From NCBI GenBank assembly GCA_028715785.1, contig JAQURC010000003.1, positions 91,423 to 155,422 on the forward strand: a stretch of DNA of 64,000 nt, in the 5' to 3' direction. The notes beneath the pieces are model-generated. The model was not told where the DNA came from. It saw nothing but the letters and a program-made list of their open reading frames with translations, and searched no databases. The position numbers and the translations under genes are program-made. Every line of letters begins with the position of its first letter. Position 1 is the first letter of the stretch. The DNA comes from Candidatus Omnitrophota bacterium (GTDB lineage Bacteria; Omnitrophota; Gorgyraeia; Gygaellales; Profunditerraquicolaceae). Below, piece by piece: positions 3,501-57,684 of this stretch.

Positions 3501-3576
3501 GTGTCATTGCGAGCCCGAAGGGCCAAGCAATCTAATAAAAGATTGCTTCGTCGCCTACGGCTCCTCGCAATGACAC
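3501..3576. repeat. Family A palindromic intergenic repeat, copy A1
   Basis: GTGTCATTGCGAG...GAAGCAATC-loop-GATTGCTTCG...CTCGCAATGACAC. The right arm is the exact reverse complement of the left arm of copy A2. Confidence 0.85.
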
Positions 3577-4320
3577 AGTAACAAACATTATTAATACCAC
3601 TAACAACCACAACCAATCCCTTGGCCTAAATTTAAAATCATTCCAAACCATCGCCTCCCCGCGATACCCCCTGGAAAGCATGGCCTTATAGACCTCGTCA
3701 TTAAGCTTAACTGACCGCTGCCACAAAGAAGCAATATTCCAGGCCGCGATACTCCGGCCATTTTTGTAATGCACAAACGTACCAACCCGGCTTTTGACCG
3801 CAAGATATGTCTGTTCAATTATTTCCACAAAGAGGTAGATATAACGGTAGCACATCCCTAAAGTCATTACAAAAATCTGCGGTATCTTAAAAATTCGCAG
3901 GACTCTTAATAATGCAAAGTGTTTGGTGGTGATGCTTAAAAGCACGGTAAAAGATACACAAGTAAGCACGCGCATGAGAAAAGGCAAAACGCTGGATAAT
4001 CCGAAACTCAATATTGCCGGAATTGCGATAAACAATGAGAACAGCGGAATAAAAAACCAGGTGCGTTTTAGAAAAAATAACAAATTTATCCTGGAAATCA
4101 ACACCAGCAATAAACATAACGCGTAGAGAAAAAATATAACCTGTAGGTTACGGGCCAACAATACCTGGATAATGAATAGCAGAAAAGTAGCTAATTTAAT
4201 CCGCGGATCCAGCGACTGCAAGAACCCTCTGCGCGCCGCCAATTCCTCGGCAAAGATTAAATCTTTCAAGAAAGCCAAGGCCCCGATAATCGAACGTTGA
4301 ATAAAATTATTGTTTTTCAT
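3532..4320 (-). CDS. cbiQ: ECF transporter transmembrane component CbiQ/EcfT
   Basis: Multi-TM protein with CbiQ-like sequence. The start was chosen at the internal ATG (MKNNNF), which gives a 10-nt gap to thyX. The last 14 codons and the stop lie inside repeat A1. Confidence 0.7.
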   Translation of the reverse strand: MKNNNFIQRSIIGALAFLKDLIFAEELAARRGFLQSLDPRIKLATFLLFIIQVLLARNLQVIFFLYALCLLLVLISRINLLFFLKRTWFFIPLFSLFIAIPAILSFGLSSVLPFLMRVLTCVSFTVLLSITTKHFALLRVLRIFKIPQIFVMTLGMCYRYIYLFVEIIEQTYLAVKSRVGTFVHYKNGRSIAAWNIASLWQRSVKLNDEVYKAMLSRGYRGEAMVWNDFKFRPRDWLWLLVVLIMFVTVSLRGAVGDEAIFY

Positions 4321-4330
4321 TTGTGGCAAA

Positions 4331-5050
4331 TCAAGCTTTTGCCGGGAATTTTCCGCAGCAGAATTTTTCACCTTCGGGGCAATACTCCAGTGTTTCACAT
4401 TTAGCTCCTGCCTCAGAAAAAACAGCCGGAAGTTTCTCTTTACAAATATCCAGCATCATATTAGCCAACTGGCGTATTTCCCACTGGGCGCGGGAGCAGC
4501 AACGAGCTTGAAAAAAATGCAATAGCTCCCGGCAATTCATAGTGACCACAATCTTTGTCTCGGCTGCCTGCGGAAGCGCAAAACGCGCGTCCTGGTTTGC
4601 CGCCTCTCCGCTGATATTATCCTGCCCCATAAACGCAAGCAGTTTGGTATAGCTCTGCTGAATCGCAGCCATCAATTTTTCAAATTCATTTTTTGCCTCC
4701 GGATTCCTCTCGATAACCGGCGGAATAATGAAATCAAAATCTTTTTCTTTTACATAACGTTGGCTTTGCTGGCTGAATGAGGCGATCCTGTGCCTGACTA
4801 ACTGATGGGTAAGGGCACGCGATACCCCCTCGATGGCAAAAGTAAACTTAACGTGTTCAAGCGGGCTCTGATGCCCGGAAGCAACAATACTCTTTACAAA
4901 GGCCTCTTGTTTTTCAATATTCACCGAACTGTCTAAAAAAACCTCGCCCGCGAATTTCTCCGAATAACACTGCCGGCAGGCAACATAAATAAGCGAGATC
5001 GCGTTCCGGCTCATCTCCAATAATTTAACGTTCATTGTAACTTTGCCCAT
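4331..5050 (-). CDS. thyX: Flavin-dependent thymidylate synthase ThyX with a Cys-rich C-terminal extension
   Basis: ThyX motif RHRIASFSQQSQRY. There are about 25 extra C-terminal residues containing six Cys. Confidence 0.8.
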   Translation of the reverse strand: MGKVTMNVKLLEMSRNAISLIYVACRQCYSEKFAGEVFLDSSVNIEKQEAFVKSIVASGHQSPLEHVKFTFAIEGVSRALTHQLVRHRIASFSQQSQRYVKEKDFDFIIPPVIERNPEAKNEFEKLMAAIQQSYTKLLAFMGQDNISGEAANQDARFALPQAAETKIVVTMNCRELLHFFQARCCSRAQWEIRQLANMMLDICKEKLPAVFSEAGAKCETLEYCPEGEKFCCGKFPAKA

Positions 5051-5064
5051 TTATTAATTCTCCC

Positions 5065-5901
5065 TTAAGATAAATAATCGGCTGCCATATATGAGCTGCG
5101 CACATATGGAGCGCTTTCGATATGCAGAAAACCTAACTCTCTGGCTTTCTCTCTATAGTAATCAAACTGCTCCGGCTGAATATATTCTTTAACCGGATAA
5201 TGCTCTTTACTGGGCGCCAGATACTGGCCGATACTCAAAAAATCGCATCCTACATAACGCAGGTCTTGCATCAGATAAAGAATTTCTTCTTCTTTTTCGC
5301 CTAAACCCAGCATCAGCCCGGATTTTATCTTTAAACCGGGCGATATTTTATTTATCGTATGCAGCAAACTAAGCGAACCTAAATAATCCGCTCCCTGGCG
5401 CACCTGTTTATAAAGTGACGGGACTGTTTCAAGATTATGGGCAATGATATCCGGTTTTGAGTCAGCGACAATTTTTAAGGCATCCAAAGAAAGCCCAAAA
5501 TCCGGAATCAGGGTTTCTATGCTTACCTGGGGTGATTTTTCCCTGATCCGCCTGACCGTCTGGGCAAAAAGCGCAGCTCCTCCGTCGGCAAGATCATCGC
5601 GGGTAACACTGGTAATCACAACATGCTTTAAATCAAGTTCTTTGACCGCCTGCGCAACACGGTCCGGCTCATTTAAATCAGGCTCAAGCGGTCTAGACTT
5701 CTTTATATTACAAAAACTGCACCGGCGCGTGCAATTACGGCCCAGGATCAAAAATGTCGCTTCATTGCGGGCAAAACATTCCCCCATATTCGGGCACATC
5801 GCCTGCTCGCAGACAGTTTCCACGCCCAAACCGCGCAAAGTATTTTTCATCACGGAACAGCTCCTAAGATTGATTTTTTTATTAAGCCAGGCAGGTTTCA
5901 T
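5065..5901 (-). CDS. lipA: Lipoyl synthase
   Basis: KPAWLNKKI N-terminal motif, CxxxCxxC radical-SAM cluster (CTRRCSFC) and a second Cys cluster (CEQAMCPNMGEC). Confidence 0.85.
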   Translation of the reverse strand: MKPAWLNKKINLRSCSVMKNTLRGLGVETVCEQAMCPNMGECFARNEATFLILGRNCTRRCSFCNIKKSRPLEPDLNEPDRVAQAVKELDLKHVVITSVTRDDLADGGAALFAQTVRRIREKSPQVSIETLIPDFGLSLDALKIVADSKPDIIAHNLETVPSLYKQVRQGADYLGSLSLLHTINKISPGLKIKSGLMLGLGEKEEEILYLMQDLRYVGCDFLSIGQYLAPSKEHYPVKEYIQPEQFDYYREKARELGFLHIESAPYVRSSYMAADYLS

Positions 5902-6625
5902 ATGCGGGTTCTTTCTCTTCGATAAACTTTACGCTAAAAGTTTCACTAAAAGCGCCGATTAGACCTTGCTCCAAAACCTTTCTTTCAGGAACTACCCGGA
6001 TTTCATCACTGAGAGTTGTCACGTATGTAGAAATATTATCCGGCAGGCAATTAAGGTAGTTACGCGCAAAATCCCAATTAACTCTTAAGGGGATTGAACC
6101 ATGCTGAAAGATAACCTGCCTTCTTCTTTTCTGGGCGTTTCCGCCGATCTTTCTCCCTCCGATAACAATGTCATATTTCTCATGTGAAGCACTGCAAAGC
6201 TCATTTGGAGCGCATCGATTATTAAAACTTTCAGCTTGAAGCGCAAATTCAGGAAAAAGGCCGAGCGATTCATAAAAACGCATAAGGAATTTACAAATAT
6301 TGCGGTAAGAAACAAACACGCCCTTAGGCTCCCCCACATCCTCCTTGCTGCAGACAAAACTGTAAGTAATTTCATCATCGTGAAAAAGGATCCCGCCTCC
6401 GGTCATCCTTTTGGCAATTTGTATGCCGTCAGAGGCGCATTTATCCAAGTTAATCTTATTCCGAGGATTCTGGGAAAACCCGTAAGTAAAAGACGGTCTT
6501 TCCCAGCGATAGATCCTTAACACCCCGATACCATCCTCCAAATATCGATTAAAAATTTTTTCATCAAAGTTCATATTATGTGCTGCGCTTGAAGCTTCTG
6601 ATCGAATAAGTCTAAATAATTTCAT
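5882..6625 (-). CDS. Lipoate-protein ligase / octanoyltransferase family (BPL/LPL catalytic domain)
   Basis: BPL_LplA_LipB-like core (GRKIGGNAQKRRR). Confidence 0.6.
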   Translation of the reverse strand: MKLFRLIRSEASSAAHNMNFDEKIFNRYLEDGIGVLRIYRWERPSFTYGFSQNPRNKINLDKCASDGIQIAKRMTGGGILFHDDEITYSFVCSKEDVGEPKGVFVSYRNICKFLMRFYESLGLFPEFALQAESFNNRCAPNELCSASHEKYDIVIGGRKIGGNAQKRRRQVIFQHGSIPLRVNWDFARNYLNCLPDNISTYVTTLSDEIRVVPERKVLEQGLIGAFSETFSVKFIEEKEPAYETCLA

Positions 6626-6669
6626 ATGCGTAACCCTATTTCCCCTTTAGGCTCGAAACAGTTTCGCAG

Positions 6670-8136
6670 TTAATCGGGAAACAGGGCCAGTGGTTTCCAG
6701 TTAAGGTCCGGCTGGCGCGCTGCCCTTACTTCATCAAGGCGCTTTATCGGCATCCTAAGCGGCGCTGCGGTTACAGCAGAAGGATTTTCTTCTGCCAAAC
6801 GGGCGATCTCAATCATTGCCTCGATAAAAGCATCGATGGTTTCTTTTGATTCTGTTTCCGTCGGTTCAATCATCAACGCCTCTTTAACAATTAAAGGAAA
6901 ATATATCGTCGGCGGATGGAATCCTCGATCAATTAAATATTTGGCAATATCTAAAGCATGCACTCCATTCTTTGCCTGCCGGCTGGCGGAAAATACGCAT
7001 TCATGCATGCATGTTTTGTTAAAAGGCAGGTCATAATATTTTTTGAGTTTTGCCTGGCAATAATTGGCATTTAATACCGCGATTTCAGCCGCTTTAATCA
7101 AGCCTTCCCTGCCCAGATGCAGGATATACGCATAGGCCTTGAGAATTACGCCGAAATTCCCGTAAAAAGGGGCGATATAACCGATGGATTTTGGCTGATG
7201 GTAATCAAGGGCGAATGTCCCGTCGGCTCTGCGGATGACCCGGGAGATCGGCAAGAACTCAATTAATTTTTCGTTTACTCCCACCGGCCCCGCTCCGGGG
7301 CCTCCGCCTCCGTGGGGAGTAGCGAATGTCTTATGTAAATTTATATGCATGACATCAAAACCAATATCCCCGGGGCGGCATTTGCCCAGCATGGCGTTAA
7401 GGTTGGCTCCGTCGTAATACATCAACGCCCCGCACGCATGCGCCAAGTCAGCGATCTCTTTGATCCGCGGGTTAAAAATTCCCAGCGTATCCGGGCAGGT
7501 CAACATCACCGCCGCCAGCTCTTCGGTTAAATGTTTTTTGTATTCGACTAAATCCATATAGCCATCCGAACCTGTGGGAATAACAACAACCTCATAACCG
7601 GCAATGGCGGCACTTGAGGGATTTGTCCCATGCGATGAATCCGGGACAATCACATATTTACGCCGGGAACCTTTATTTTTGTGGTAGGCGGCAATCAGCA
7701 TTACTCCGGTTAACTCACCATGAGCGCCGGCCAAAGGCTGCATGGTAAAAGCGCTCATCCCGGTAATTTCACAAAGCAGTTTCTCGGATTCATACAGGAC
7801 CTCTAAAGACCCCTGCGCAAGCATGCCCCCTCCTGAAAGTTGCGGCAATAACGGATGCAGCTGAGAAAATCCATCTAAGGAAGCGATCTGCTCGCAAAAT
7901 TTTGGATTATATTTCATTGTGCAGGAACCAAGCGGATAGAAATTTGTGTCTACGGAATAATTAAGCCGGGAAAGATTGGTATAATGGCGGATGACATCTA
8001 ATTCACTAAGGCAGGCTAAATGCGCCTGGCGCTTGCGGCAATATTTTTCCGCCAAAGGCTTTGCTTTGCCAACATCGCAGTCGCCGTATGAAAAACCCCG
8101 CCGGCCTTCCTTATGTTTCTCAAAAATTAATTTCAT
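6670..8136 (-). CDS. gcvPB: Glycine dehydrogenase (decarboxylating) subunit 2
   Basis: P-protein C-terminal half, with the PLP Lys region HINLHKTF. Confidence 0.9.
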   Translation of the reverse strand: MKLIFEKHKEGRRGFSYGDCDVGKAKPLAEKYCRKRQAHLACLSELDVIRHYTNLSRLNYSVDTNFYPLGSCTMKYNPKFCEQIASLDGFSQLHPLLPQLSGGGMLAQGSLEVLYESEKLLCEITGMSAFTMQPLAGAHGELTGVMLIAAYHKNKGSRRKYVIVPDSSHGTNPSSAAIAGYEVVVIPTGSDGYMDLVEYKKHLTEELAAVMLTCPDTLGIFNPRIKEIADLAHACGALMYYDGANLNAMLGKCRPGDIGFDVMHINLHKTFATPHGGGGPGAGPVGVNEKLIEFLPISRVIRRADGTFALDYHQPKSIGYIAPFYGNFGVILKAYAYILHLGREGLIKAAEIAVLNANYCQAKLKKYYDLPFNKTCMHECVFSASRQAKNGVHALDIAKYLIDRGFHPPTIYFPLIVKEALMIEPTETESKETIDAFIEAMIEIARLAEENPSAVTAAPLRMPIKRLDEVRAARQPDLNWKPLALFPD

Positions 8137-9464
8137 AGCACTGCCTCCAGGCTATCGGTAAGACGAACTATCTCTTCTTTGGTCCTTTTCTCGGTAACGG
8201 CAATCAATAAATAATTATCCATTCCTTTATAGAACTTGCCCAGCGGAAAACCGCAGGCAAAGCCTTTTTCAATCATCCGGCGCACTACTTCATCGGCACT
8301 TTTAGGCAGTAACACTGTAAATTCATTAAAAGTCGGAGAGGAACGTTTTACTGCAACGCCTTTAACGCGCGACAATTCCTCTTTGGCAAACTCGGCTTTT
8401 TGATAATTATGGGCGGCTAGCTCCTTCAATCCTTCCCTGCCCAAAAGCGAAACAAACACTGCCGCCCGTAACGCGCAAAGCGCCTCATTCGAACAAATAT
8501 TGGAAGTCGCTTTTTGGCGGCGGATATGCTGCTCGCGGGTCTGCAGGGTCAAGACAAAACCTCTTTTACCGCCGCTGTCAACGGTAGCCCCCACGATCCT
8601 GCCGGGCATCTGGCGCACTAATTCATTTTTTACGGCCATAAATCCCAAATAAGGCCCGCCGAAAGAAAGCGGTATCCCCAAACTCTGGCCTTCGCCTGTG
8701 GCGATATCAAACCCCATCTCACCCGGAGCCTTTAACATGCCCAGAGAAACCGGATACACCGAAGCAATTGCCAAAGCGCCAAATTTATGCGCCTCATTCA
8801 CTATGTCGCTATGATCATCAACAGCGCCGAAGAAATTAGGGTTCTGTAAAATTACCGCGGCGGTCCGATCATCTAAATGTTTAAGCAACTCTCCCCTGCT
8901 GCTCTGGCCGTGCACAACCGGGATTTCCACAAACTCAACGGAAAGATTCAAGGTGTAAGTGTAAAGCATGGTGCGATAGATCAAGTTCACTCCGCTGTCC
9001 AAAATTATTTTATTGCGGCCGGTCTGCCTTATGGCCATCATCATCGCCTCAAAAAGAGCGGTCCCCCCGTCATACAAAGAAGCATTGGAAACATCCAGTC
9101 CGGTCAACTGGCAAATAATACTCTGATATTCATAAATTGCCTGCAGCCACCCCTGGGAACACTCCGGCTGATACGGCGTATAAGCGGTATAGAACTCTGA
9201 ACGCCCGGCAAGCGCGTCCACGCCGGCGGGAATAAAATGATCATAGAATCCCGCGCCGACAAAATTAACCAGGCCCGTGGCATTCTTTAGGGAAAGCTTG
9301 CGCAATGCTTGCGTTACCTCAAACTCTGATTTTGACGCCGGAATTTTAAAAGATTTGGGCGAAAGTGCCGCGGGAATATCTTTAAAAAGTTCATTGATAT
9401 TCTTTACCCCGATCACTTGCAGCACCTCTTGAATATCCTCTTGCGTGTGCGGAATATAACTCAT
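8133..9464 (-). CDS. gcvPA: Glycine dehydrogenase subunit 1
   Basis: P-protein N-terminal half. There is a 4-nt overlap with gcvPB. Confidence 0.9.
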   Translation of the reverse strand: MSYIPHTQEDIQEVLQVIGVKNINELFKDIPAALSPKSFKIPASKSEFEVTQALRKLSLKNATGLVNFVGAGFYDHFIPAGVDALAGRSEFYTAYTPYQPECSQGWLQAIYEYQSIICQLTGLDVSNASLYDGGTALFEAMMMAIRQTGRNKIILDSGVNLIYRTMLYTYTLNLSVEFVEIPVVHGQSSRGELLKHLDDRTAAVILQNPNFFGAVDDHSDIVNEAHKFGALAIASVYPVSLGMLKAPGEMGFDIATGEGQSLGIPLSFGGPYLGFMAVKNELVRQMPGRIVGATVDSGGKRGFVLTLQTREQHIRRQKATSNICSNEALCALRAAVFVSLLGREGLKELAAHNYQKAEFAKEELSRVKGVAVKRSSPTFNEFTVLLPKSADEVVRRMIEKGFACGFPLGKFYKGMDNYLLIAVTEKRTKEEIVRLTDSLEAVL

Positions 9465-9850
9465 TTGGCAAGCCCTTCCACATAACGCTGATAAGCCGAG
9501 GCATCCATGAGATTTGCTTTTTCCGCTTCGTTTGAAATCTGCAGCGAGAAAAAATAGCCTTTTTCATACGCCGACTGGTTAATTAATTCCGGATGGGCCG
9601 CTAATTGCGTATTGATGGATGTAACTTTTCCCGATAAAGGCGCGTATACTTCAGAAGCGGCTTTGACCGATTCAACAGTAGCGCAATATTTGGATTGTTT
9701 AAGCTCCTCTCCTATCTTGGGTAATTCCACGAAAGTAATATCACCCAGAGAACTTTGAGCATAATCAGTAATACCGATATAGGCGGTTTTACCGTCGATA
9801 CGCGCCCACTCGTGATCCTTGGTATAGAAAATATTCTTTGGTATATCCAT
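9461..9850 (-). CDS. gcvH: Glycine cleavage system H protein
   Basis: Lipoyl-lysine motif ESVKAASE. Confidence 0.9.
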   Translation of the reverse strand: MDIPKNIFYTKDHEWARIDGKTAYIGITDYAQSSLGDITFVELPKIGEELKQSKYCATVESVKAASEVYAPLSGKVTSINTQLAAHPELINQSAYEKGYFFSLQISNEAEKANLMDASAYQRYVEGLAK

Positions 9851-9875
9851 AAAATTCTCCTTTTAAATTAATATC

Positions 9876-9956
9876 GTCATTGCGAGGAGCCGTAGGCGAC
9901 GAAGCAATCTTTAAAAGCAAGATTGCTTCGGCACTTCTCGTGCCTCGCAATGACAC
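9876..9956. repeat. Family A palindromic intergenic repeat, copy A2
   Basis: Same termini and inner stem as A1. It lies between the gcvT stop and the gcvH RBS. Confidence 0.85.
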
Positions 9957-11029
9957 TAATTTGTACGACAACGATAAAAAGGTTTTTTTGTAACCACGAC
10001 CGGAATCTCCGTGCCCGCGTCCTTAACAATAAGCTGCGCTCCGATACTATAATTACCCGCGACATACCCCATTCCAATACCGACAGAAAGGCTGGGTGAA
10101 AATGAACCGCTGGTTACCAGGCCTACGCGTTGATTACGATCGAATATAGCAAAACCATGGCGAGGAGCGCGCCGGGAATCCGCCTGAAAACAAATTAAAC
10201 GCTCTTTCGGGCCGCCTGCCTGTTCTTTTAGCAAAGCATCCTTACCGATAAAATCCTTGGATAAATCCACAAACTTAGCAAGCCCGGCGGCCAAAGGTGT
10301 ATGGTTTATATCCAGGTCCTGGCCGTAAAGCGGATAACCCATTTCAAGGCGTAAGGTATCCCGGCTCCCCAAACCGGCGGGTTTTACGCGCACATCCTTA
10401 AGCAGAACTTTCCACAATTTTACTACATAATCGGCTGATATATATATTTCATAGCCGAGCTCTCCGGTATAACCGGTGCGGCTTACTATACAGCGCTGGT
10501 CATGGAAAGTAAATTCGGAAAAAGTATAATAGTTAAGTTTTGCCAGGCCATCGCCAAAAATATCTTTAAGCACATCCAGGGACTCCGACCCCTGCACATC
10601 CAGTTTTCCTGTTTTATCAGAAATATCTTTGAGGTTATATTCTCCGGTAAGATTTTTCTTTAAATGCGCGTAATCGCCGAGAGTGGTTGCGGCATTGACC
10701 ACCAGCATCCAGTTGGTTTTATTGATGCGGTACACAACCAGGTCATCCAACACCCCCGCCTGTTCATCAAGCATAAAACCATAACGGCAGGAGCCTTCGG
10801 GCATGGAAATTATATTCTGGGTGACAATGCGGTCAAAGCCGCTTAAGGCAGGGTCTGCCTCAAGCATGAATTCACCCATATGGCAAATATCGAATACAGA
10901 AACTGCCTTGCGGGTATGCGCGTGCTCAGCCAAAATACCTTCATACTGAATGGGCATCAACCATCCGCCAAAAGGAGCTATTTTTGCATTAAGTGAAATA
11001 TGCGTATTGTAAAGCGGAGTTTTTAACAC
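9956..11029 (-). CDS. gcvT: Aminomethyltransferase (glycine cleavage T protein)
   Basis: GcvT family throughout. Its stop TAG overlaps the last nt of A2. Confidence 0.9.
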   Translation of the reverse strand: MLKTPLYNTHISLNAKIAPFGGWLMPIQYEGILAEHAHTRKAVSVFDICHMGEFMLEADPALSGFDRIVTQNIISMPEGSCRYGFMLDEQAGVLDDLVVYRINKTNWMLVVNAATTLGDYAHLKKNLTGEYNLKDISDKTGKLDVQGSESLDVLKDIFGDGLAKLNYYTFSEFTFHDQRCIVSRTGYTGELGYEIYISADYVVKLWKVLLKDVRVKPAGLGSRDTLRLEMGYPLYGQDLDINHTPLAAGLAKFVDLSKDFIGKDALLKEQAGGPKERLICFQADSRRAPRHGFAIFDRNQRVGLVTSGSFSPSLSVGIGMGYVAGNYSIGAQLIVKDAGTEIPVVVTKKPFYRCRTN

Positions 11030-11081
11030 TTAGGTGTTCTGCTTTTATTAAGTTAAGTAATTTTATAGATTATATCACAAA

Positions 11082-11414
11082 TTATTTTTTTCCACTCAAG
11101 AATTTACCCAATATCAATACCACAACCACGCAGATAAGTATTCCGACAACCGCGGATAAAATATAAGCAAAGCTTAAACTGGCAACGGGCTTTTTTCCCC
11201 ACCCCTTAAAAGCATAGCCGGGAAGCGGCGCGCTCCAAAGGCTGGATAATTTTTCCAGCCCATGAGGTATATAACCTATAAATCCTTTCACCTCATTAGC
11301 GCCCCATTCGCCCCAGGCGCTGCCTGCCTTAAAATGTCCGGGGAGCAATAAACCCAAAGGAGATAAAACGACTAACACGCCTAAACCAATCCAAAATTTA
11401 GTAGTAATTTTCAT
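11082..11414 (-). CDS. PDGLE-domain membrane protein (CbiN-like ECF accessory component)
   Basis: Two TM helices flank a PxGxE-like motif (YIPHGLEK). It lies immediately downstream of cbiM. Confidence 0.5.
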   Translation of the reverse strand: MKITTKFWIGLGVLVVLSPLGLLLPGHFKAGSAWGEWGANEVKGFIGYIPHGLEKLSSLWSAPLPGYAFKGWGKKPVASLSFAYILSAVVGILICVVVVLILGKFLSGKK

Positions 11415-11418
11415 AAAT

Positions 11419-12096
11419 TCAAGCCCTTGCGGTTAATAACTCCGGAGAATGCTTTTGCAGGTATTTTATTACCAGGGCAGTAACAATTGCTTCAATCCAG
11501 CCCAAGATCAAAAGATGCTCGCCCGCCATTACCGGCACGGCAACATTCAATCCATAAGGGCAGTATAATGCCTGCCCATTTACATTATGATGCAACAAAG
11601 GCTGCAATCCGAATTCAACGCCGGTTAAAAAAGCGGCGACATTAATGCCGATATATCCGGCTATTCCGGCAGCCAATACTCTTCTACCCGAATCTATCGA
11701 AGCGCGATAACTAATAATCTTATATATATAATAGCCGGCAAACGGCATCGCAAACGCCATATTAAAACAATTGGCGCCGATAGCGGTAATGCCTCCATCG
11801 CCAAATAACAATGCCTGGATAACCAGCGCCACGGTAATAGCAATACAAGCCGCCCAGGGGCCAAGCAGTATCGCCACCAAAACACTGCCTACGGCATGGC
11901 CGGTTGTTCCTGCCGGTATGGGAATATTTAACATCATAATCACAAAACTGAATGCCGCCCCTATCGCCAACATCGGCACCTGCTTGGCCGTTAGTGTTTT
12001 CTTTACAATCCTGGAGGCAGCCGTCCATATCGGCAGCATCGCAAGATAAAAAAATCCGCAGGTTGCCGGGCCTAAATATCCGTCGGGTATATGCAT
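11419..12096 (-). CDS. cbiM: ECF transporter substrate-specific component CbiM/NikM
   Basis: N-terminal MHIPDGYL, which is diagnostic for CbiM/NikM. Confidence 0.8.
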   Translation of the reverse strand: MHIPDGYLGPATCGFFYLAMLPIWTAASRIVKKTLTAKQVPMLAIGAAFSFVIMMLNIPIPAGTTGHAVGSVLVAILLGPWAACIAITVALVIQALLFGDGGITAIGANCFNMAFAMPFAGYYIYKIISYRASIDSGRRVLAAGIAGYIGINVAAFLTGVEFGLQPLLHHNVNGQALYCPYGLNVAVPVMAGEHLLILGWIEAIVTALVIKYLQKHSPELLTARA

Positions 12097-12097
12097 A

Positions 12098-13309: not shown

Positions 13310-13319
13310 AACTGATTAT

Positions 13320-15720: not shown

Positions 15721-15811
15721 ATTAAATTAGGCTAAGAAGTTAAAAACAGATACAACTATTATAGGATGGGGGTATAAAAAAACAAGGAATTACTTATGCT
15801 GGCCTTATTTA

Positions 15812-17077: not shown

Positions 17078-17240
17078 GCGGCTTTGATTAACTTGGGTTT
17101 ATCATTATAAGCTAAAAGGCCAAGATGAATATGGCAATAGGATTCATGATTATAAATACTCAAGATATTCTTACAGTGTGAATATTTACATTTTCTTCCT
17201 TTAAGCGAAGTCTTTATTTTTTTGATATTTACACCTCCAT

Positions 17241-17276
17241 AAAAAAACCGCAAAGGTTAGTTGTCGTCCTTGGCGG
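17241..17276 (-). terminator. Rho-independent terminator (CCGCCAAGG...CCTTTGCGG then a U7 run on the minus strand)
   Basis: A 9-bp stem is followed by TTTTTTT. It lies downstream of the 17314..17628 gene. Confidence 0.6.
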
Positions 17277-17313
17277 CTTCAAAATCCTCTAATCTTTATT
17301 TTATTATACTCCT

Positions 17314-18131: not shown

Positions 18132-18161
18132 TTTTTCACCTCAAATTTTAATTAAATAATT

Positions 18162-18539: not shown

Positions 18540-18560
18540 AAGGGCTACCCTTCCGCCTAG

Positions 18561-31373: not shown

Positions 31374-31429
31374 AGTGTTTTTTAATATAATATTACTTAC
31401 ATTTACTTAGAATAGTTAGCAAGAAAAAA

Positions 31430-31509
31430 GGGGACGGTTCTATTTTTTGTGCTTTGTAGCTGACGTTTAAACGTCAGCTACTCTGTGGATAAAAAACAGA
31501 ACCGTCCCC
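31430..31509. repeat. Family C nested-palindrome element, copy C2
   Basis: GGGGACGGTTCT...GTAGCTGACGTTTAAACGTCAGCTAC...AGAACCGTCCCC. Flanking A- and T-runs give a bidirectional terminator-like structure. Confidence 0.85.
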
Positions 31510-31556
31510 TTTATTTACCTAAACTTACTTAGATTATAATATTTTGTTAAACAACC

Positions 31557-37272: not shown

Positions 37273-37279
37273 TAAAAAC

Positions 37280-37360
37280 AGGGACGGTTCTGTTTTTTTG
37301 TACTTTGTAGCTGACGTTTAAACGTCAGCTACTCTGTGGATAAAAAATAGAACCGTCCCC
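37280..37360. repeat. Family C nested-palindrome element, copy C3
   Basis: Near-identical to C2. It ends 8 nt before the uvrA start codon. Confidence 0.85.
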
Positions 37361-37372
37361 ATGTTTCTAAAA

Positions 37373-40926: not shown

Positions 40927-40928
40927 CT

Positions 40929-41642: not shown

Positions 41643-41721
41643 CTATCCTCTCCTCTATTTCAAAAGGCCATAATTGCGCTACCTAGCGCACACCCGCGCA
41701 ACACCTTATAAGCGCGGGGTG

Positions 41722-46007: not shown

Positions 46008-46018
46008 TTTTTTCTCCA

Positions 46019-47200: not shown

Positions 47201-47225
47201 CCAGAGTCTCCTTAGATTTCAAATG

Positions 47226-47390
47226 TTAGCGGGTTTGGCGAGTCTTGTTCTCGCATCACCGCTTGCTGTCCCCAGCGTGGACAGCTGCGCTTCAGTAAAA
47301 TTCTCGCTCTGCCGGAACATCTATGGCGGGCAGCCCTGCCCGCTCGAATTTTAAGATGCTGCTCGAATCAAGCCTCGCCGCCCGCTAAGC
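47226..47390 (+). repeat. Family B structured intergenic repeat, copy B1
   Basis: CTTAGCGGG...CCCGCTAAG terminal inverted repeat with nested stems. It lies between the argF stop and the argG RBS. Confidence 0.85.
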
Positions 47391-48308: not shown

Positions 48309-48320
48309 ATTTATCCCCTT

Positions 48321-48403
48321 GTGTCATTGCGAGGAGCCTCGCCGCAGGCGGGCGACGCGGCAATCTTAAAAACAAGATTGCTTCGCTTCGCTCGCAATGA
48401 CGC
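48321..48403. repeat. Family A palindromic intergenic repeat, copy A3
   Basis: Same termini and inner stem as A1, A2 and A4. The argD stop lies in its loop. Confidence 0.85.
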
Positions 48404-50410: not shown

Positions 50411-50423
50411 CGGCCCTTTTCCT

Positions 50424-51560: not shown

Positions 51561-52591
51561 AATAATCCGGCCGTCTCAGGCAGCTTATACATAATATTCA
51601 TATTCTGCACTGCTTGGGCTGAAGCGCCTTTTAATAAATTATCAATCGCGCAGATGACAATAATTGTTTTACCGAAATCCTTGACTCCGATGTCGCAAAA
51701 ATTAGTCTTGACCACATCCTTGATCCGGGGAAAAATACCGTCCGGCTTGATCCGGATAAACGGTTCATTCTTATAGAATTTTTTATATAATTCTACTACA
51801 CTGCCTACTTTAAGTTTTGCCCCCGGGGCCTTCTTAAGATAAATCGTCGCAAGTATCCCTCTTTCGATAGGCAGAAGATGCGGCACGAATACCACGCTAA
51901 TCTTTTTTCCGGCCAGCTTAGAAAGAGTCTGGTTTATTTCCGGTGAATGCTGGTGCACATTAACTTTATAAGCCCGGAAATCTCCCTGTATTTCAGAAAA
52001 TAAATATTCTTTCTCCAGCTTTTTGCCCGCACCGCTCACTCCGGATTTAGCGTCGATAATAATCGAATCCGTATCGACTAAATTTACCGCCAATAGCGGG
52101 GCAAGCCCAAGAATCGCCGAAGTGGGATAACATCCGGGATTGGCCAGAAGCTTTGCGGTTTTGATCTTTGCCCTGTTTAATTCCGGCAGCCCATAAATGG
52201 CCTCTTTTAAATTGGCCTTATCCTGATGGCTTATCTTATAAAATTCTTCATAAATCGTCGGGTTTTTAATCCTATAGTCGGCGCTTAAATCAACAACCCT
52301 CTTGCCTAAACTTAAAAGTTTGGGCGCAAATTTCATGGATATAGTATGCGGCAGGGCCAAAAAAACCAGGTCGCAATCTTTCTTAATTTGGGCCCAATCC
52401 GGTTTTATGCAAACCAGATCCAGCCTCTTCTTGAATTTCGGAAAAACATCGGAAATAACGCAAGCCCCCTGGCCGCTCTTTCCGCTATTGTAAAGGCGGG
52501 TGATCTTAACATTGGGATGGCCAAGCAAAAGTTCAATCAGGACCTCTCCGGTATGGCCGGTGGCTCCGATTATTCCAACATTGATAATCAT
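51557..52591 (-). CDS. argC: N-acetyl-gamma-glutamyl-phosphate reductase
   Basis: GATGHTG motif and an active-site Cys. Confidence 0.9.
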   Translation of the reverse strand: MIINVGIIGATGHTGEVLIELLLGHPNVKITRLYNSGKSGQGACVISDVFPKFKKRLDLVCIKPDWAQIKKDCDLVFLALPHTISMKFAPKLLSLGKRVVDLSADYRIKNPTIYEEFYKISHQDKANLKEAIYGLPELNRAKIKTAKLLANPGCYPTSAILGLAPLLAVNLVDTDSIIIDAKSGVSGAGKKLEKEYLFSEIQGDFRAYKVNVHQHSPEINQTLSKLAGKKISVVFVPHLLPIERGILATIYLKKAPGAKLKVGSVVELYKKFYKNEPFIRIKPDGIFPRIKDVVKTNFCDIGVKDFGKTIIVICAIDNLLKGASAQAVQNMNIMYKLPETAGLL

Positions 52592-52672
52592 TGGACTCTC
52601 CTCATATTTTAATCATCTTAGAATAAAATCAATCTTCCGTCAAGGTTTTTTCTCGACGGAATAGGCTATAAC

Positions 52673-52841
52673 TTATGCGGGTCCTGTCGAGCCTTGTCTC
52701 TCACCGCACCGCTTGCTCGCCCCAGCGTGGCGAGCTGCGCTTCGGCAAAAATTCTCGCTCTGCCGAGACATTTAGTGCGGGCAACCCTGCCCGCTCGAAT
52801 TTTTGAGATGCTGTTCGAGTCCAAGGCTCGCCACCCGCTAA
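52673..52841 (+). repeat. Family B structured intergenic repeat, copy B2
   Basis: Aligns with B1 and B3 along its whole length, with compensatory stem changes. Confidence 0.85.
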
Positions 52842-53092
52842 CAACATGCATAAATGGCACTGACAAGTTTCGCAGCGAATGTCGATTTTATGAATATCAT
52901 CAAGATTTCCGGCTTTTGCTGGAGGAGCATTAGAAATTTTTCGGCAGTTGTGTGCAAGGAGTTACGGCGAGTGCAGGCAATCTAATAATACGTAAGGAAC
53001 ACTGCGCTGCCGGAAGGAGCCGTAAACCGCAGCACACGGCGAAAAATTTCAGCGACGGAAGTAAAAGACGGAAATCGAAACGCCGCGTAAAC

Positions 53093-53126
53093 AAAAAATC
53101 CCGCTTCATCAGCGGGACTTTTTTAC
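53093..53126 (-). terminator. Rho-independent (bidirectional) terminator downstream of rpsI
   Basis: TCCCGCT-TCATC-AGCGGGA stem, with a T6 run on one side and an A6 run on the other. Confidence 0.7.
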
Positions 53127-53153
53127 AAACTTATATTTTAATCTACTTATCGC

Positions 53154-53549
53154 TTACCTCTTTGTCCACTGGAAGCGTTTACGCGCCCCTTTGAGCCCGT
53201 ATTTCTTACGCTCCTTCATCCGCGGATCACGCGTTAAATACCCGTTCTTACGGAATATTGCCTTAAAATTTTCATCCGCATTTAAAAGCGCGCGGGCAAT
53301 ACCCAAACGTAAAGCCCCAGCCTGGCCGGTCAATCCGCCGCCAGCAAGCCTGGCGGCAATATTAAATTTACCCGTGCTTTCCGTAAGCGCCAAAGGCTGT
53401 AAAACAATAATCCGGTCTGTTTCACGCAGGAAATATTTCTCAAAAGGCCGCCCGTTAACCGTAATCAAGCCGGTACCCGGCTCCATACGTACCCTGGCGG
53501 TTGATTCCTTGCGCCTGCCCAATGCTATATATTTAGTTGACTCGCTCAT
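53154..53549 (-). CDS. rpsI: 30S ribosomal protein S9
   Basis: C-terminal KYGLKGARKRFQWTKR. Confidence 0.95.
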   Translation of the reverse strand: MSESTKYIALGRRKESTARVRMEPGTGLITVNGRPFEKYFLRETDRIIVLQPLALTESTGKFNIAARLAGGGLTGQAGALRLGIARALLNADENFKAIFRKNGYLTRDPRMKERKKYGLKGARKRFQWTKR

Positions 53550-53986
53550 TATTTCCTGGCCTCCAAAACAACAGGCTTTATACCGGTTAAATCATGCTTA
53601 TCATCGGCAAAAACCCTTAATTTTTTAATTAAATCCCTTCCTAGCGGGCCTGAAGGCAGCATCCTCTGAACGGCTAACTGCATAACGGTAGCCGGCTTTT
53701 TAGCCAAAAGCACCTCCAGCTTTACTTCACGTAAGCCTCCCGGATACCCGGAATACCGGCGATAGACCTTCTGTTTAAGCTTTCGCCCGGTGACCTTAAT
53801 CTGGCTGGCATTGATCACAATTACCCCGTCACCGGTATCCAGATGCGGAGTAAAAATCGGCTTATGCTTGCCTCTTAAGATCGTGGCAATCCTGGCTGCC
53901 AGCCTTCCCAAAGTCTGGCCTTTGGCATCAGCAATATACCACTTCATTTTAATGTCTTCCGGTTTGGCTGTATATGTCTTTTTCAT
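53549..53986 (-). CDS. rplM: 50S ribosomal protein L13
   Basis: L13 family. Confidence 0.95.
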   Translation of the reverse strand: MKKTYTAKPEDIKMKWYIADAKGQTLGRLAARIATILRGKHKPIFTPHLDTGDGVIVINASQIKVTGRKLKQKVYRRYSGYPGGLREVKLEVLLAKKPATVMQLAVQRMLPSGPLGRDLIKKLRVFADDKHDLTGIKPVVLEARK

Positions 53987-53995
53987 AGAAAAATA

Positions 53996-54023
53996 AGTAT
54001 AACAGAATAATTTATAAAGTCAA
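53996..54023 (-). promoter_or_regulatory. Possible promoter TTGACT-16-TATACT directly upstream of rplM
   Basis: Read on the minus strand. There are only 9 nt between the -10 element and the ATG, so the mRNA would be near-leaderless. Confidence 0.3.
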
Positions 54024-54032
54024 ATAGATTTT

Positions 54033-54788
54033 TTAATACTTTACCTTGACTAAGCATAATCCTTTTGCCGGCAAAGTCGGCCCGGCAAGCGCACGGTCGC
54101 CTGATTTAAGGATCCTGCGCATACTCCCTTTTGGAAACCTTCCCCTGCCAATCTCTAATAAGGTCCCGGCAATATTTCTGACCATATTATACAAAAAACT
54201 GTCTGCTTCAATGTTAATATGCAAAAAATCTTTATCCTTAACAATCCTGATGCGTTTAACGGTACGCACAGGATTTCTCTGCCTGTCTTCGGCCGCCTGA
54301 AAAGCTTTGAAATTATGCCGGCCAAGAAGAAATTTGGCCTCACTGCGCATTAATCTTGCATCCAGAGGATGATAAAAGAAATATACCCTGCCTGCCGACA
54401 GAGGCGAAGAATATTTCCGATTCAGGATCGTATAACGATAGATCTTGGATTTGGCGCAGAACCGGCTGTTAAAATCCAAACCCACCTTTTGAATCCGGCT
54501 TACCTTTATATCTTCAGGCAGAAGGCAATTTATCGCCCAGCGCAATCTTGCCAGGGGTATTTTTGAGGAACTTTTAAAATTAGCAACCTGGGAAAGAGCG
54601 TGCACCCCTGAATCCGTGCGCCCGGCAACGATGAGCTTAATCTCTTCCTGAAGGATTTTTTTAAGAACCTGCTCTAAAACATGCTGGATGGTTTTGTTTG
54701 CCCGGTAAGTTACCTTTTTGCCGTTCTGCACCTGCCAGCCGTAATAATGCGTGCCGTCATACTCTATTTGGAGCTTGAAATTAGGCAT
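54033..54788 (-). CDS. truA: tRNA pseudouridine(38-40) synthase
   Basis: TruA catalytic Asp motif (GRTDSGVHA). Confidence 0.9.
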   Translation of the reverse strand: MPNFKLQIEYDGTHYYGWQVQNGKKVTYRANKTIQHVLEQVLKKILQEEIKLIVAGRTDSGVHALSQVANFKSSSKIPLARLRWAINCLLPEDIKVSRIQKVGLDFNSRFCAKSKIYRYTILNRKYSSPLSAGRVYFFYHPLDARLMRSEAKFLLGRHNFKAFQAAEDRQRNPVRTVKRIRIVKDKDFLHINIEADSFLYNMVRNIAGTLLEIGRGRFPKGSMRRILKSGDRALAGPTLPAKGLCLVKVKY

Positions 54789-55789
54789 TCAGCGATTTGC
54801 ACGGCATTTGTGGCAGCGCCTTTACGTAAATTATCCGCCACTACCCACAACCATAATCCCTTTTTATTAAAGGTATCCTGGCGGATGCGGCCGACAAAAG
54901 TCTCATCCTTGCCCTCGACATCCTTAGGCATAGGATATAAATTATTCTTAGGATCATCCATAACCACAACGCCCGCAGCCTTGGCTAAGATTTTCCTGGC
55001 TCCTTCGGCAGTTAAGGGCTTGGCAGTTTCAATATAAACCGATTCAGAATGCCCGGTCCTTACCGGAACACGCACGGTAGTTGCCGAAATTTTAATCTTT
55101 GGCGCGTGCATAATTTTGTGTGTTTCCTTGACCAGCTTCCACTCTTCATTGGTATAATCGCCCTCAACAAAACTGCCGATGTGCGGAAAACAATTATAAG
55201 CTAACTGCTGGGGCATAGCTTTATTTAGAACGCAAACTTTAACATTTTCAAATCCACCCTGGGCAATTAAACTCGATTCTTCTTTTAATTGCTCAACCGC
55301 CCCTTTTCCCGCCCCGCTGGAAGCCTGCAGAGTGGTAACGATAATTTTCTTAATCCCTACCTTCTTATGAATAGGATTCAAAGCTACCACCATCTGGATA
55401 GTCGAACAATTAGGATTAGCGATAATCCCTTTGTGTTTTTTAACATCATTAGGATTAACTTCCGGAACAACCAGGGGAACTTTTGGATCCATACGAAAAT
55501 CCGCGCCGTTATCAATAACCACAGCGCCTCTTTTTACCGCCTCAGGCGCGTAACTGACCGCGGCCCCCTTCTCGCCTTCGGTTCCGGCAAACAATGCGAT
55601 ATCGATTCCGTTGAAACCATCCGGAGTAATCGGCTCAACCGCATAAACCTGCCCATCGACATTGATATCGCGGGCAGAACGGGCAAAAACTTTTAAGGTG
55701 TTCACGGGAAAATTCCGCTGCTTTAAAACCCGCAGCATCTCAATCCCAACGACTCCTGCCCCGATTACCGCCACATTATATTTTTTCAT
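54764..55789 (-). CDS. asd: Aspartate-semialdehyde dehydrogenase
   Basis: N-terminal GAGVVG and an active-site Cys. Confidence 0.9.
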   Translation of the reverse strand: MKKYNVAVIGAGVVGIEMLRVLKQRNFPVNTLKVFARSARDINVDGQVYAVEPITPDGFNGIDIALFAGTEGEKGAAVSYAPEAVKRGAVVIDNGADFRMDPKVPLVVPEVNPNDVKKHKGIIANPNCSTIQMVVALNPIHKKVGIKKIIVTTLQASSGAGKGAVEQLKEESSLIAQGGFENVKVCVLNKAMPQQLAYNCFPHIGSFVEGDYTNEEWKLVKETHKIMHAPKIKISATTVRVPVRTGHSESVYIETAKPLTAEGARKILAKAAGVVVMDDPKNNLYPMPKDVEGKDETFVGRIRQDTFNKKGLWLWVVADNLRKGAATNAVQIAECLISSSK

Positions 55790-55812
55790 CTTTTATAACC
55801 TTTCTTCATTAC

Positions 55813-55968
55813 TTAGCGGGTCCTGCCGAGACTTGTTCTCGCCGCACCGCTTGCTCGCCCCAGCGTGGCTCGCTGCGCTTCGGTAAAATTCTCGCTCTCC
55901 GCCTTCGGCGGAACCGTGCCCGCTCGAATTTTAAGATGCCGCTCGAATCAAGTCTCGTCACCCGCTAG
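55813..55968 (+). repeat. Family B structured intergenic repeat, copy B3
   Basis: It lies between the leuB stop and the asd RBS. Confidence 0.85.
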
Positions 55969-55971
55969 AAA

Positions 55972-57030
55972 TTATAGATTCTTAACTACAAGATCGCCTA
56001 TCTCCGTTGTCGAATAACCCATTTTACCGGCAGCAAGTGATTTCAGTTTCTTGCTTACTAGTTCAATAACCGCATCCTCGATTGCCTTCCCAGCTTCAGT
56101 TTCTCCTAAGCTCTCGAGCATCATCCCTACTGCACAAATTGCTGCTAACGGGTTAATCACATTCTTACCGGTATATTTTGGCGCGCTTCCGCCGATAGGT
56201 TCAAACATCGAAACTCCCTGAGGATTAATATTTCCTCCGGCGGCTATTCCCATACCGCCCTGGATCATCGCCCCTAAATCCGTAATAATATCGCCGAACA
56301 TATTGTCCGTAACGATGACATCAAACCACTCGGGATTCTTTACGAACCACATCGTCGTGGCGTCAACATGGGCGTAATCCGTGGCCACATCCGGGTATTC
56401 TTTGGCTACTTCATTAAATGCGCGCTGCCAAAGGTCCCAGGCATAGGTCAAAACATTGGTTTTACCGCAAAGGGTCAGCTTTTTCCTTTTATTACGCTTG
56501 CGCGTGTACTCGAAAGCATAACGGATACAGCGCTCCACCCCTTTACGGGTATTATAGGAAATCTGGGTAGCCACTTCATTGGCCGTCCCTTTGTCTTTAA
56601 ACTCTCCCATACCTTTATATAGGCCTTCGGAGTTCTCGCGCACAACCACAAAATCAATATCTTCCGGCTTCTTGTCTTTAAGCGGGCAAAAATTGGAATT
56701 ATAAAGCTTGACCGGGCGCAGGTTAATATATTGATCCAGGGCAAATCTTAATTTAAGCAGCACGCCTGTTTCAATAATCCCGGGCTTTACATCCGGGTCA
56801 CCCACCGCGCCGAGGTAAATCGCGTTATATTTTTTTAATTCGGCAATATCGTTATCATCAACCAGTTTTCCGGTTTTTAAATATCTCCGGCCGCTGAAAT
56901 CAAAAGATTTTGTTTCATATTTAAAATTAAACTTCCGGGCAGCTGCCTGCAAAACTTTCAAACCCTCGTTAACTACCTCCGGGCCGGTCCCGTCGCCGGG
57001 GATTACCGCGATCCTATACATTTTGAGCAC
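55972..57030 (-). CDS. leuB: 3-isopropylmalate dehydrogenase
   Basis: IDH/IMDH family. Confidence 0.9.
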
Positions 57031-57063
57031 CTCTAAGTTTTTATCCAGCGAAATCCCGCGGAG

Positions 57064-57096
57064 TCTGTCAAAATTATCTTTGATAATTTTGACAGA
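57064..57096. repeat. Perfect inverted repeat TCTGTCAAAATTATC-TTT-GATAATTTTGACAGA
   Basis: 15-bp arms with a 3-nt spacer, in the leuD-leuB intergenic gap. Confidence 0.85.
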
Positions 57097-57098
57097 TA

Positions 57099-57596
57099 TT
57101 ACGAAGCGGGAGAAACCTTCTTTTTAATATAATTAATCAGGCCGCCGCTCTCAACAATCTGCTGCAAGAACTGCGGAAAAGCCTGCGTTTTATAATTTTT
57201 ATCCTGAGTTATATTCTTAATTATGCCAGTGGACAAATCGATTTCAATAATATCTCCGTCATTAATTTTATCCACATCCGTTGATTCTAAAAAAGGCAAG
57301 CCGATATTAATGGCATTTCGAAAAAATATGGCCGCAAAACTTTTGGCAATCACCGCGGCGATCCCGCACCCCTTAATCGCCAAAGGCGCATGCTCGCGGC
57401 TTGAACCGCAGCCAAAATTGTTTCCGGCAACAATTATATCTCCGGGGCTGACCTTTTGCGAAAAATCCGGGCTGATGGTTTCCATACAATGCCTGCCTAA
57501 TTCCTGCGCGTCGCCGGAAACCAGATATTTGGCCGCGATAATATCATCGGTATTTATATCATCGCTAAATTTATGGACTTTGCCTTTGATAATCAT
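57099..57596 (-). CDS. leuD: 3-isopropylmalate dehydratase small subunit
   Basis: LeuD family. Confidence 0.9.
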   Translation of the reverse strand: MIIKGKVHKFSDDINTDDIIAAKYLVSGDAQELGRHCMETISPDFSQKVSPGDIIVAGNNFGCGSSREHAPLAIKGCGIAAVIAKSFAAIFFRNAINIGLPFLESTDVDKINDGDIIEIDLSTGIIKNITQDKNYKTQAFPQFLQQIVESGGLINYIKKKVSPAS

Positions 57597-57609
57597 AGTA
57601 AATAAATTT

Positions 57610-57684
57610 GTGTCATTGCGAGCCCGCAGGGCGAAGCAATCCCGCTTTTAAGATTGCTTCGTCGCTTTGCTCCTCGCAATGACA
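57610..57684. repeat. Family A palindromic intergenic repeat, copy A4
   Basis: The leuC stop lies in its loop. Confidence 0.85.

Follow-up and report, generated by a model that had tools for sequence, protein, structure and literature searches.

Family A, a palindromic repeat at operon junctions of a Candidatus Omnitrophota genome, and its putative link to the Ssn nuclease

The 64,000-nucleotide stretch of Candidatus Omnitrophota DNA analyzed here (GenBank assembly GCA_028715785.1, contig JAQURC010000003.1, positions 91,423 to 155,422; hereafter the window) carries all of its genes on the minus strand. Four of its operon junctions, identified by NCBIfam as cbiQ/cbiO, gcvT/gcvH, argD/argF and leuC/leuD, are each occupied by a palindromic element of a repeat that we call Family A and that we relate to the small GIY-YIG nuclease Ssn. 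A preliminary description of the window had placed four palindromes at these junctions, and they are borne out by four exact inverted pairs of one terminus (3503-3574, 9876-9954, 48323-48401 and 57612-57683). This terminus, GTCATTGCGAG, has exactly 8 copies in the 64-kb window, while 0.78 matches would be expected in a shuffled window even with up to one mismatch allowed. The elements and their parts are as follows.

3501-3576, no strand: element A1, cbiQ/cbiO junction; left unit 3503-3532 (plus strand), spacer 3533-3540 (TAATAAAA), right unit 3541-3574 (minus strand)
9874-9956, no strand: element A2, gcvT/gcvH junction; left unit 9876-9909, spacer 9910-9920, right unit 9921-9954
48321-48403, no strand: element A3, argD/argF junction; left unit 48323-48365 (long nested hairpin, GCGGCAATC junction), spacer 48366-48375, right unit 48376-48401 (shortest module, GCGAAGC)
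57610-57685, no strand: element A4, leuC/leuD junction; left unit 57612-57641, spacer 57642-57651, right unit 57652-57683

All four elements, 72-79 bp long, end in exact GTCATTGCGAG/CTCGCAATGAC, but the GTGTC extension that had been included in their shared termini is not universal, being TCGTC in A2-left, GCGTC in A3-right and TTGTC in A4-right. Alignment of the four in both orientations revealed invariant outer 11-mers, an inner GCAATC/GATTGC pair and a variable module between them. The shared inner stem described previously likewise held in part, as GAAGCAATC is found in 6 of the 8 arms but is replaced by CAAGCAATC in A1-left and by GCGGCAATC in A3-left. In line with the earlier description of shuffled arm variants, A1-right and A2-left are perfect reverse complements of each other (37 nt, 100%). 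Whole elements fold to long hairpins on either strand, as RNA or DNA, and RNA folding gave -40 to -49 kcal/mol with z scores of -3.7 to -8.8.

Each element is composed of two independent hairpin units, heads outward, with a short A/T-rich spacer between them. The unit reads (C/T)GTC - ATTGC - GAG - [small variable hairpin] - (C)GAA/GTG/GCG - GCAAT - C, and both (C/T)GTC directly before ATTGC and GCAATC are present in 8/8 window arms. The small variable hairpins include GCGAAGC, GCCCGAAGGGC and GGCACGAGAAGTGCC, and CGTCATTGCGAGGAGCGAAGCGACGAAGCAATCTC is an example of one Family A arm. As DNA, 7/8 window arms fold with the same topology.

Three of the genes upstream of these elements, cbiQ, argD and leuC, read through one arm of the repeat and end in tails of 11-14 repeat-derived residues, exactly as had been claimed. 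The corresponding gene ends are:

3532-3576, minus strand: cbiQ repeat-derived 3′ end, 14 codons (VSLRGAVGDEAIFY, 3535-3576), stop TAG 3532-3534
9956-9958, minus strand: gcvT stop TAG, abutting the right end of A2, with zero repeat-derived residues
48366-48401, minus strand: argD repeat-derived 3′ end, 11 codons VIASEAKQSCF (48369-48401), stop TAA 48366-48368, in the spacer
57648-57683, minus strand: leuC repeat-derived 3′ end, 11 codons VIARSKATKQS (57651-57683), stop TAA 57648-57650, in the spacer

ArgD and LeuC share the repeat frame GTC ATT GCG AG., in agreement with the preliminary description, and CbiQ reads the next frame. All three stops had been assigned to the loop; this is true of the argD and leuC TAA codons, but the cbiQ TAG falls on the stem/spacer boundary of A1. 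The CbiQ family profile ends at residue 243 of 288 (NCBIfam), and in LeuC, which has 429 residues, the equivalog model TIGR02083 stops at 418, the last residue before the repeat. Comparison of LeuC with its 120 closest homologues (80-93% identical; all organism-named ones Candidatus Omnitrophota) showed that about 110 of the 120 orthologues end in ...ITHPxxI or ...ITHPxxIK at residue 418-419, where the repeat begins. Three homologues carry repeat-derived tails of their own: P0001 (92% identical) ends in VIARSVATKQS, P0004 in VIARS and P0029 in VSLRARNDTIYLI. The LeuC, ArgD and CbiQ tails are an automatic by-product of native stop loss and, since tails differ among close relatives, nothing suggests that they have been recruited for function, the exaptation as coding tails that had been proposed earlier. 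Family A also accounts for peptides that recur at protein ends in the annotations of metagenome-assembled genomes, such as VIARS.ATKQS, SLRGA..., HCE...DEAI and ...LAMT. A count of long open reading frames (ORFs) that stop within elements of other genomes (18/130, plus 27 elements inside ORFs) was not used, because spurious ORFs abound in G+C-rich genomes and make it unreliable. Separately, the LeuC orthologues P0002, P0009 and P0011 end in short non-native tails (...VTSS, ...ITSS and ...IASS), the source of which may be another repeat family at the leuC/leuD junction.

The leuC/leuD junction is occupied differently in different relatives. The site is empty in locus L121, where the leuC stop overlaps the leuD start (CTC TAATG G), and holds a complete element in the window and in L123. 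L124 retains a 26-nt collapsed palindrome of two termini only (GTGTCATTGCGAGCCCGCAATGACAC, 2935-2960), and L122, a syntenic 21-kb stretch of GCA_028712255.1, bears a lone head followed by an element of a sister family, GTCATTCTGAG...GAAGAATC...CTCAGGATGAC (11255-11380). The argD/argF junction of L122 is free of any element, and the ArgD encoded there finishes in ...ILERVLADV*. Empty, filled and decayed sites in close relatives indicate that element presence is the derived state and that the elements arrived by insertion, which upholds the earlier suggestion of a mobile palindrome inserting at gene 3′ ends. Relatives whose LeuC proteins are about 90% identical differ in occupancy, which points to recent turnover, and the same operon junction in its empty, filled and decayed states offers a natural test case.

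To place these copies among other bacteria, one genome per species was scanned for two exact termini 35-65 nt apart (596 Gb; ~2 chance matches expected). Family A was found in at least 120 genome loci, and the matches listed span Pseudomonadota, Bacteroidota, Chloroflexota, Planctomycetota, Patescibacteria, Cyanobacteria, Desulfobacterota and others, with hosts that include Bradyrhizobium, Sphingomonas, Pedobacter, Mucilaginibacter, Flavobacterium, Microcoleus, Rickettsiales, Coxiellaceae and Zixibacteria; a Candidatus Tisiphia genome (L073) holds one copy. The inner motifs, which were not in the search pattern, were both present in 100 of 124 elements and singly in a further 23, where chance would account for ~1% each, and among the matches listed there were 147 pairs of heads against 22 orphan heads. 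The tail after GCAAT is CCAG in most proteobacterial copies and CTT, CTA or CCC in the window. Family A also occurs in at least 120 viral or proviral contigs of IMG/VR (L211-L330; host DNA in the contigs is not excluded), with both inner motifs in 119 of 140 elements among the matches listed, and five viral contigs encode Ssn relatives. The family had no counterpart in the resources consulted: Rfam, searched at the gathering threshold across the whole window and permissively with A2 and one Bradyrhizobium locus, gave chance microRNA or riboswitch matches only, and a literature search by sequence string returned unrelated primers only. An exact-protein look-up found neither the window LeuC nor the window ArgF on record.

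Copies in other genomes also revealed which structure is conserved. Position -1 to the head is C in 72% and T in 24% of 260 arms, conservation ends two bases outside the head, and no target-site duplication was found, 2-5 nt direct repeats being at or below chance. Seven head types, which define sister families, were recognized (ATTGC, ATTCT, ATCCT, ATTCC, ATTTC, ATGCT and ATCCC), and a given head pentamer ATNNN co-occurs in an arm solely with its own reverse complement plus C (73/83 for ATTGC; off-diagonal ~0). This strict covariation of head and inner pentamer suggests that the stem forms within one arm. The two arms of an element, on the other hand, carry an identical module in only 27 of 219 distinct dimers, short/long heterodimers are favored (131 observed vs 109.5 expected), and junction types are uncorrelated between the two arms. 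The arms thus vary independently, suggesting that the selected structure is the single arm and not the long hairpin.

A single oriented hairpin is also what Ssn nucleases recognize. Chenal et al. (Nat Commun 2025; PMC11893778) found that the Neisseria repeat dRS3 is part of a longer oriented hairpin, NTS (CGTCATTCCCGCGMAVGCGGGAATCYRG), and that SsnA, a 94-aa single-domain GIY-YIG nuclease, requires NTS to be single-stranded DNA (ssDNA) for binding and makes its cut a few bases upstream. Cleavage depends on the three bases that precede the palindrome, and binding on the C that directly follows it (PMC11893778). These vital positions, the GTC 5′ of the palindrome and the C just 3′ of it, are invariant in 8/8 window arms. 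Across phyla, genes for Ssn, a cd10448-type single-domain GIY-YIG nuclease, are flanked by Ssn-related motifs (SRM), and whether the repeat-ssn-repeat unit is mobile was left open (PMC11893778).

Plasmid records retrieved by tblastn with an Ssn-like query have ssn genes bracketed by heads-outward dimers of like layout, and the repeats around ssn in Planktothrix belong to the GTCATTCTGAG...GAAGAATC sister family. Metagenomes were then scanned with an alignment of five of these proteins and the Ssn-like query, yielding 80 loci. The commonest 11-mer starting with GTCAT in these 80 ssn loci is GTCATTGCGAG itself, with 68 occurrences in at least 14 loci against ~0.1 expected. Where 200 nt were available on both flanks, heads lay beside ssn on at least one side in 52 of 65 loci and on both sides in 27 of 65, ATTGC/ATTGC being the commonest head pair around ssn. 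In at least three contigs (L166, L173 and L189) the ssn ORF lies inside one Family A element, with the left unit 41-59 nt before the ssn start, the right unit 27-41 nt after its stop, and a total length of 356-388 bp. The bracketed protein is 95 aa long and consists of a single GIY-YIG domain (PF01541, E = 1.9e-18); it is 51% identical, gap-free, to the N. gonorrhoeae SsnA orthologue, whose own flanks carry NTS repeats, and among NCBIfam models it gave a sub-threshold match only to an intron endonuclease.

Ssn proteins that partner ATTGC heads carry (G/A/S)GSR after REKQIK (11/14) where the partners of other heads have xW(L/V/R)R, pointing to an Ssn subclade with which Family A is specifically paired. 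This subclade comprises at least 7995 protein clusters at E <= 1e-10, often on contigs of 0.5-1 kb, and is ~80% identical between Chloroflexota, Desulfobacterota and Aerophobetes. Together with the IMG/VR copies, its size and similarity fit a selfish, horizontally moving element, without proving it. Tandem arrays of heads without the rest of the unit lie beside some ssn genes, with a period of 23 or ~92 nt (L208 1376-2403; L127 2698-2760 and 3339-3400), with 12 GTCATTGCGAG heads in a row in L208, which suggests repeated partial copying at the element boundary.

Taken together, we consider it likely, from motif content and gene arrangement, that Family A units are NTS/SRM-type Ssn substrates and that the window copies are gene-less miniature derivatives of an ssn-carrying element. 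In metagenomes the full-length form carries the 95-aa ssn gene in place of the spacer, for 356-388 bp in all. Copies entered operon junctions of the Omnitrophota genome by insertion, removing or displacing the native stop at leuC, and probably also at argD and cbiQ; with the native stop lost, translation must continue along one arm until it meets a stop at or in the A/T spacer, adding the 11-14 residues. Whether still encoded elsewhere in the genome or since lost, a cognate Ssn would recognize the units in ssDNA and nick just outside the heads, and this nicking would drive copying or spread. A heads-outward dimer would receive two nicks, just outside each end and on opposite strands, a geometry that would suit copying or excision. 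As part of an mRNA, the long hairpin may have side effects on stability and on translational coupling.

Several observations weigh against this interpretation. The window has no ssn or GIY-YIG ORF, and no search for ssn was aimed at Omnitrophota. The published SRM pattern, HGTCWYN(0-2)YYVSBRHN(0-5)WNVSBRGN(0-2)RNCYNB, gave 0 matches in the window on either strand; the arm interior is GAG plus a nested hairpin and not YYVSBRH. The arm stems are just 5 bp long, and DNA folding gave only -2.7 to -9.7 kcal/mol with z not significant in 5/8 arms, so the case for the arm hairpin rests on covariation. Exact termini were required in the genome scan, which makes terminus conservation there a matter of construction, and similarity to a single Ssn sequence set the ranking of the 80 metagenomic loci, so their head-type frequencies are no census. 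To our knowledge, no Ssn has been shown to mobilize anything. The role demonstrated for the Neisseria Ssn is restriction of transforming ssDNA. As for the missing nuclease, two regular expressions and phmmer found no GIY-YIG protein in the 120 genome loci or the window, an absence to be anticipated were ssn limited to one or a few copies in each genome. A Pfam scan of ~47 window ORFs, with those at 49.5-64 kb other than leuC and leuD named by synteny with L122 alone, likewise found no GIY-YIG, transposase or integrase domain.

Absence of ssn from the window would also be explained if the copies were inert relics, descended from an Ssn-associated element whose nuclease has been lost from the lineage and now only decaying. 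The 26-nt remnant in L124 and the lone head in L122 fit such decay, and Di Nocera et al. 2013 proposed that CGTC-tagged repeats, to which we return below, may be heading toward extinction (PMC3733652). We nevertheless regard this as unlikely, since every position known to matter is preserved in all 8 window arms, two arms of different elements are identical over 37 nt, and the differing occupancy among close relatives points to recent turnover. Selection by the host for an RNA element, such as an mRNA-stabilizing or processing hairpin, an attenuator or a terminator, with the DNA repeat as template only, is improbable. The hairpins are very stable on the transcribed strand, the next start codon follows each of the four elements at a distance of 12-25 nt within co-directional operons, and E. 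coli repetitive extragenic palindromes (REPs) stabilize upstream mRNA. However, Rfam holds no match, a T-run is lacking, no terminator was called at A3 or A4, the same junctions lack the element in close relatives, arm-to-arm complementarity is not selected, and the same oriented motif is conserved in both arms, which a single transcript cannot present together. Moreover, SsnA does not bind RNA (PMC11893778). RNA-level stabilization may, by analogy with other REPs, be a side effect of the elements.

The two remaining alternatives invoke a transposase. The preliminary description had suggested a search for a REP-associated tyrosine transposase (RAYT) or other transposase, and indeed REP/REPIN doublets mobilized by a RAYT, an IS200-like enzyme, would share with Family A the layout of inverted units forming a long hairpin, the intergenic 3′ positions and, as in IS200/IS605-type elements, the lack of a target-site duplication. 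Yet the head is CGTC/TGTC and not GTAG, the Pfam scan found no RAYT or other transposase in the window, and no gene family recurs near the elements (all-against-all BLAST of ORFs within 1.5 kb in the 120 genome loci). No transposase flanked by CGTC repeats was found by Di Nocera et al. (PMC3733652), and the gene that Family A repeats do bracket in metagenomes encodes the GIY-YIG nuclease Ssn, leaving mobilization by a RAYT very improbable. Even less credible is a classical miniature inverted-repeat transposable element (MITE), a deletion derivative of a DDE-transposase insertion sequence recognized via its terminal inverted repeats. In keeping with a MITE, the elements are small, numerous, polymorphic for presence or absence and bounded by terminal inverted repeats, but target-site duplications do not exceed chance, conservation reaches beyond the termini to inner motifs that covary with the head, no DDE transposase lies nearby, and the longer form carries a 95-aa GIY-YIG gene in place of a transposase.

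If Family A units are Ssn substrates as we propose, then the CGTC-tagged repeats, which were without a dedicated transposase in 2013, gain a candidate enzyme in Ssn, and the variant with the commonest head next to sampled ssn genes is one that escapes the published SRM search pattern. The GGSR-type Ssn is a candidate further specificity for ssDNA tools. A bolder proposal is that the 356-388 bp unit is a minimal autonomous mobile element with Ssn, its only protein, as the mobilizing enzyme and Family A as its gene-less derivatives, moving between phyla, possibly on viruses. This we put forward only tentatively and with less than even confidence; if true, the unit would be among the smallest self-mobilizing DNA elements, with a route of mobilization distinct from those of DDE, HUH, serine and tyrosine enzymes.

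Among the consequences of the elements for the host operons is that of A4, the insertion of which broke the overlapping leuC stop and leuD start. All four elements had been placed between a stop codon and the ribosome-binding site of the next gene; the junction genes were confirmed, but leuD has no recognizable Shine-Dalgarno sequence between A4 and its ATG, and the Shine-Dalgarno-like AAGGA that would have served leuD now lies upstream, beyond the hairpin (57597-57609 and 57684-57695). It is our conjecture that the folded A4 hairpin brings this AAGGA back near the leuD ATG. The terminator role attributed to the elements was not supported, as no T-run follows the elements scanned and an intrinsic terminator scan, run only across A3 and A4, called none. 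The sequences downstream of the hairpins are GGAUUUUAAG (A1), AUAUUAAUUU (A2), ACAAGGGGAU (A3) and ACAAAUUUAU (A4), with a short U-run downstream of A1 only.

The window holds other repeats besides Family A. A second intergenic family of ~155 nt has three copies (47230-47390, 52680-52805 and 55820-55972; 79% mean column identity) with inverted ends TAGCGGGT...ACCCGCTA, located at argG|argF, argC|rpsI and asd|leuB, where window ORFs at 49.5-64 kb other than leuC and leuD are named only by synteny with L122. This family looks like a separate miniature element. The rpsI-argC position of L122 is occupied by a 147-aa ORF with a weak integrase-core (rve) match. A composite palindrome at 24-67, 31424-31515 and 37275-37368, with GGGGACGGTTCT...AGAACCGTCCCC arms, A/T-run flanks and an inner GTAGCTGACGTTTAAACGTCAGCTAC palindrome, has the look of a bidirectional terminator, and its copies bracket the uvrA and TPR genes. 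At 818-877 the 12-mer TAATCGTCACCC is repeated five times in tandem, just downstream of a Schlafen/AlbA_2-HATPase gene (872-2254). Finally, the cobalt energy-coupling factor (ECF) transporter genes are split (2664-4398 and 11082-12096), cbiQ and cbiO being preceded at ~7 kb by cbiM and a PDGLE (cbiN-like) gene; the interval holds, on one strand, gcvT, gcvH, gcvPA, gcvPB, genes for an LplA/LipB-type ligase and a radical-SAM protein (both lipoate-related), and thyX.

Among known repeats, Family A is close to the CGTC-tagged REPs of Di Nocera et al. (PMC3733652), in which the head is CGTC/TGTC, with CCTC as a further form, the stem opens with AT and the tail is CCA. These REPs occur in several phyla mostly as heads-outward dimers that are often heterodimers, and lie downstream of ORFs and sometimes in-frame inside them. 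CGTC-1 is the dRS3 of Neisseria and the RPE-6 of Rickettsia, and both RPE-4 and RPE-6 of Rickettsia are CGTC repeats (PMC3733652). The preliminary description had likened the palindromes to REP and RPE elements; the CGTC/TGTC tag does place them in the REP superfamily that includes RPE-4, RPE-6 and dRS3, but the partner enzyme and the terminator role implied by that comparison do not apply. Like the CGTC-tagged REPs, Family A has the tag, unpaired within the unit, and a stem starting with AT; it forms heads-outward dimers that favor heterodimers, sits downstream of ORFs with occasional in-frame coding and flanks no dedicated transposase. On the tail the picture is mixed, CCA being found in most genomes and CTT, CTA or CCC in the window copies. 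CGTC-3 (peptide VIAGLDPAIH), which reads CGTC-ATTGCCGGG-CTTGA-CCCGGCAAT-CCA (PMC3733652), has the head, ATTGC...GCAAT and the CCA tail in common with Family A. In contrast, the CGTC-tagged REPs have a stem of 8-9 bp and a loop of 4-5 nt where Family A has 5 contiguous pairs and an interior of 12-31 nt, and the Family A peptides (VIARSEATKQS, SLRGA..., ...LAMT) are missing from the intragenic peptide tables of Di Nocera et al. Family A is probably not one of their four families (CGTC-1 to -4).

Family A is like NTS and SRM in being an oriented hairpin headed by HGTC, whose palindrome begins in AT and is directly followed by C, and in having hundreds of mostly intergenic copies and, in metagenomes though not in the window itself, which is without a GIY-YIG ORF, the repeat-ssn-repeat architecture. 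Its units differ in having a 5-bp stem with a purine-rich GAG/GAA mismatch and a nested variable hairpin where NTS and SRM have an 8-bp stem and a 3-4 nt loop, its Ssn partners have GGSR where others have xWxR, and it is described here in an Omnitrophota host and from sequence alone. REP/REPIN-RAYT systems are similar in their inverted hairpin doublets, in a single-strand-specific partner enzyme from a repeat-flanked gene and in leaving no target-site duplication, but combine a GTAG head with an HUH tyrosine transposase where Family A combines a CGTC head with a GIY-YIG nuclease. GIY-YIG homing endonucleases, whether of group I introns or free-standing phage genes, are likewise small selfish nuclease genes embedded in sequence that spreads with them; they have added DNA-binding domains and cut double-stranded DNA at the empty allele, whereas Ssn is a single domain that cuts ssDNA beside a hairpin. 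Family A is thus an uncatalogued structural variant within the known CGTC-REP/Ssn-motif superfamily, with an Ssn subclade of its own.

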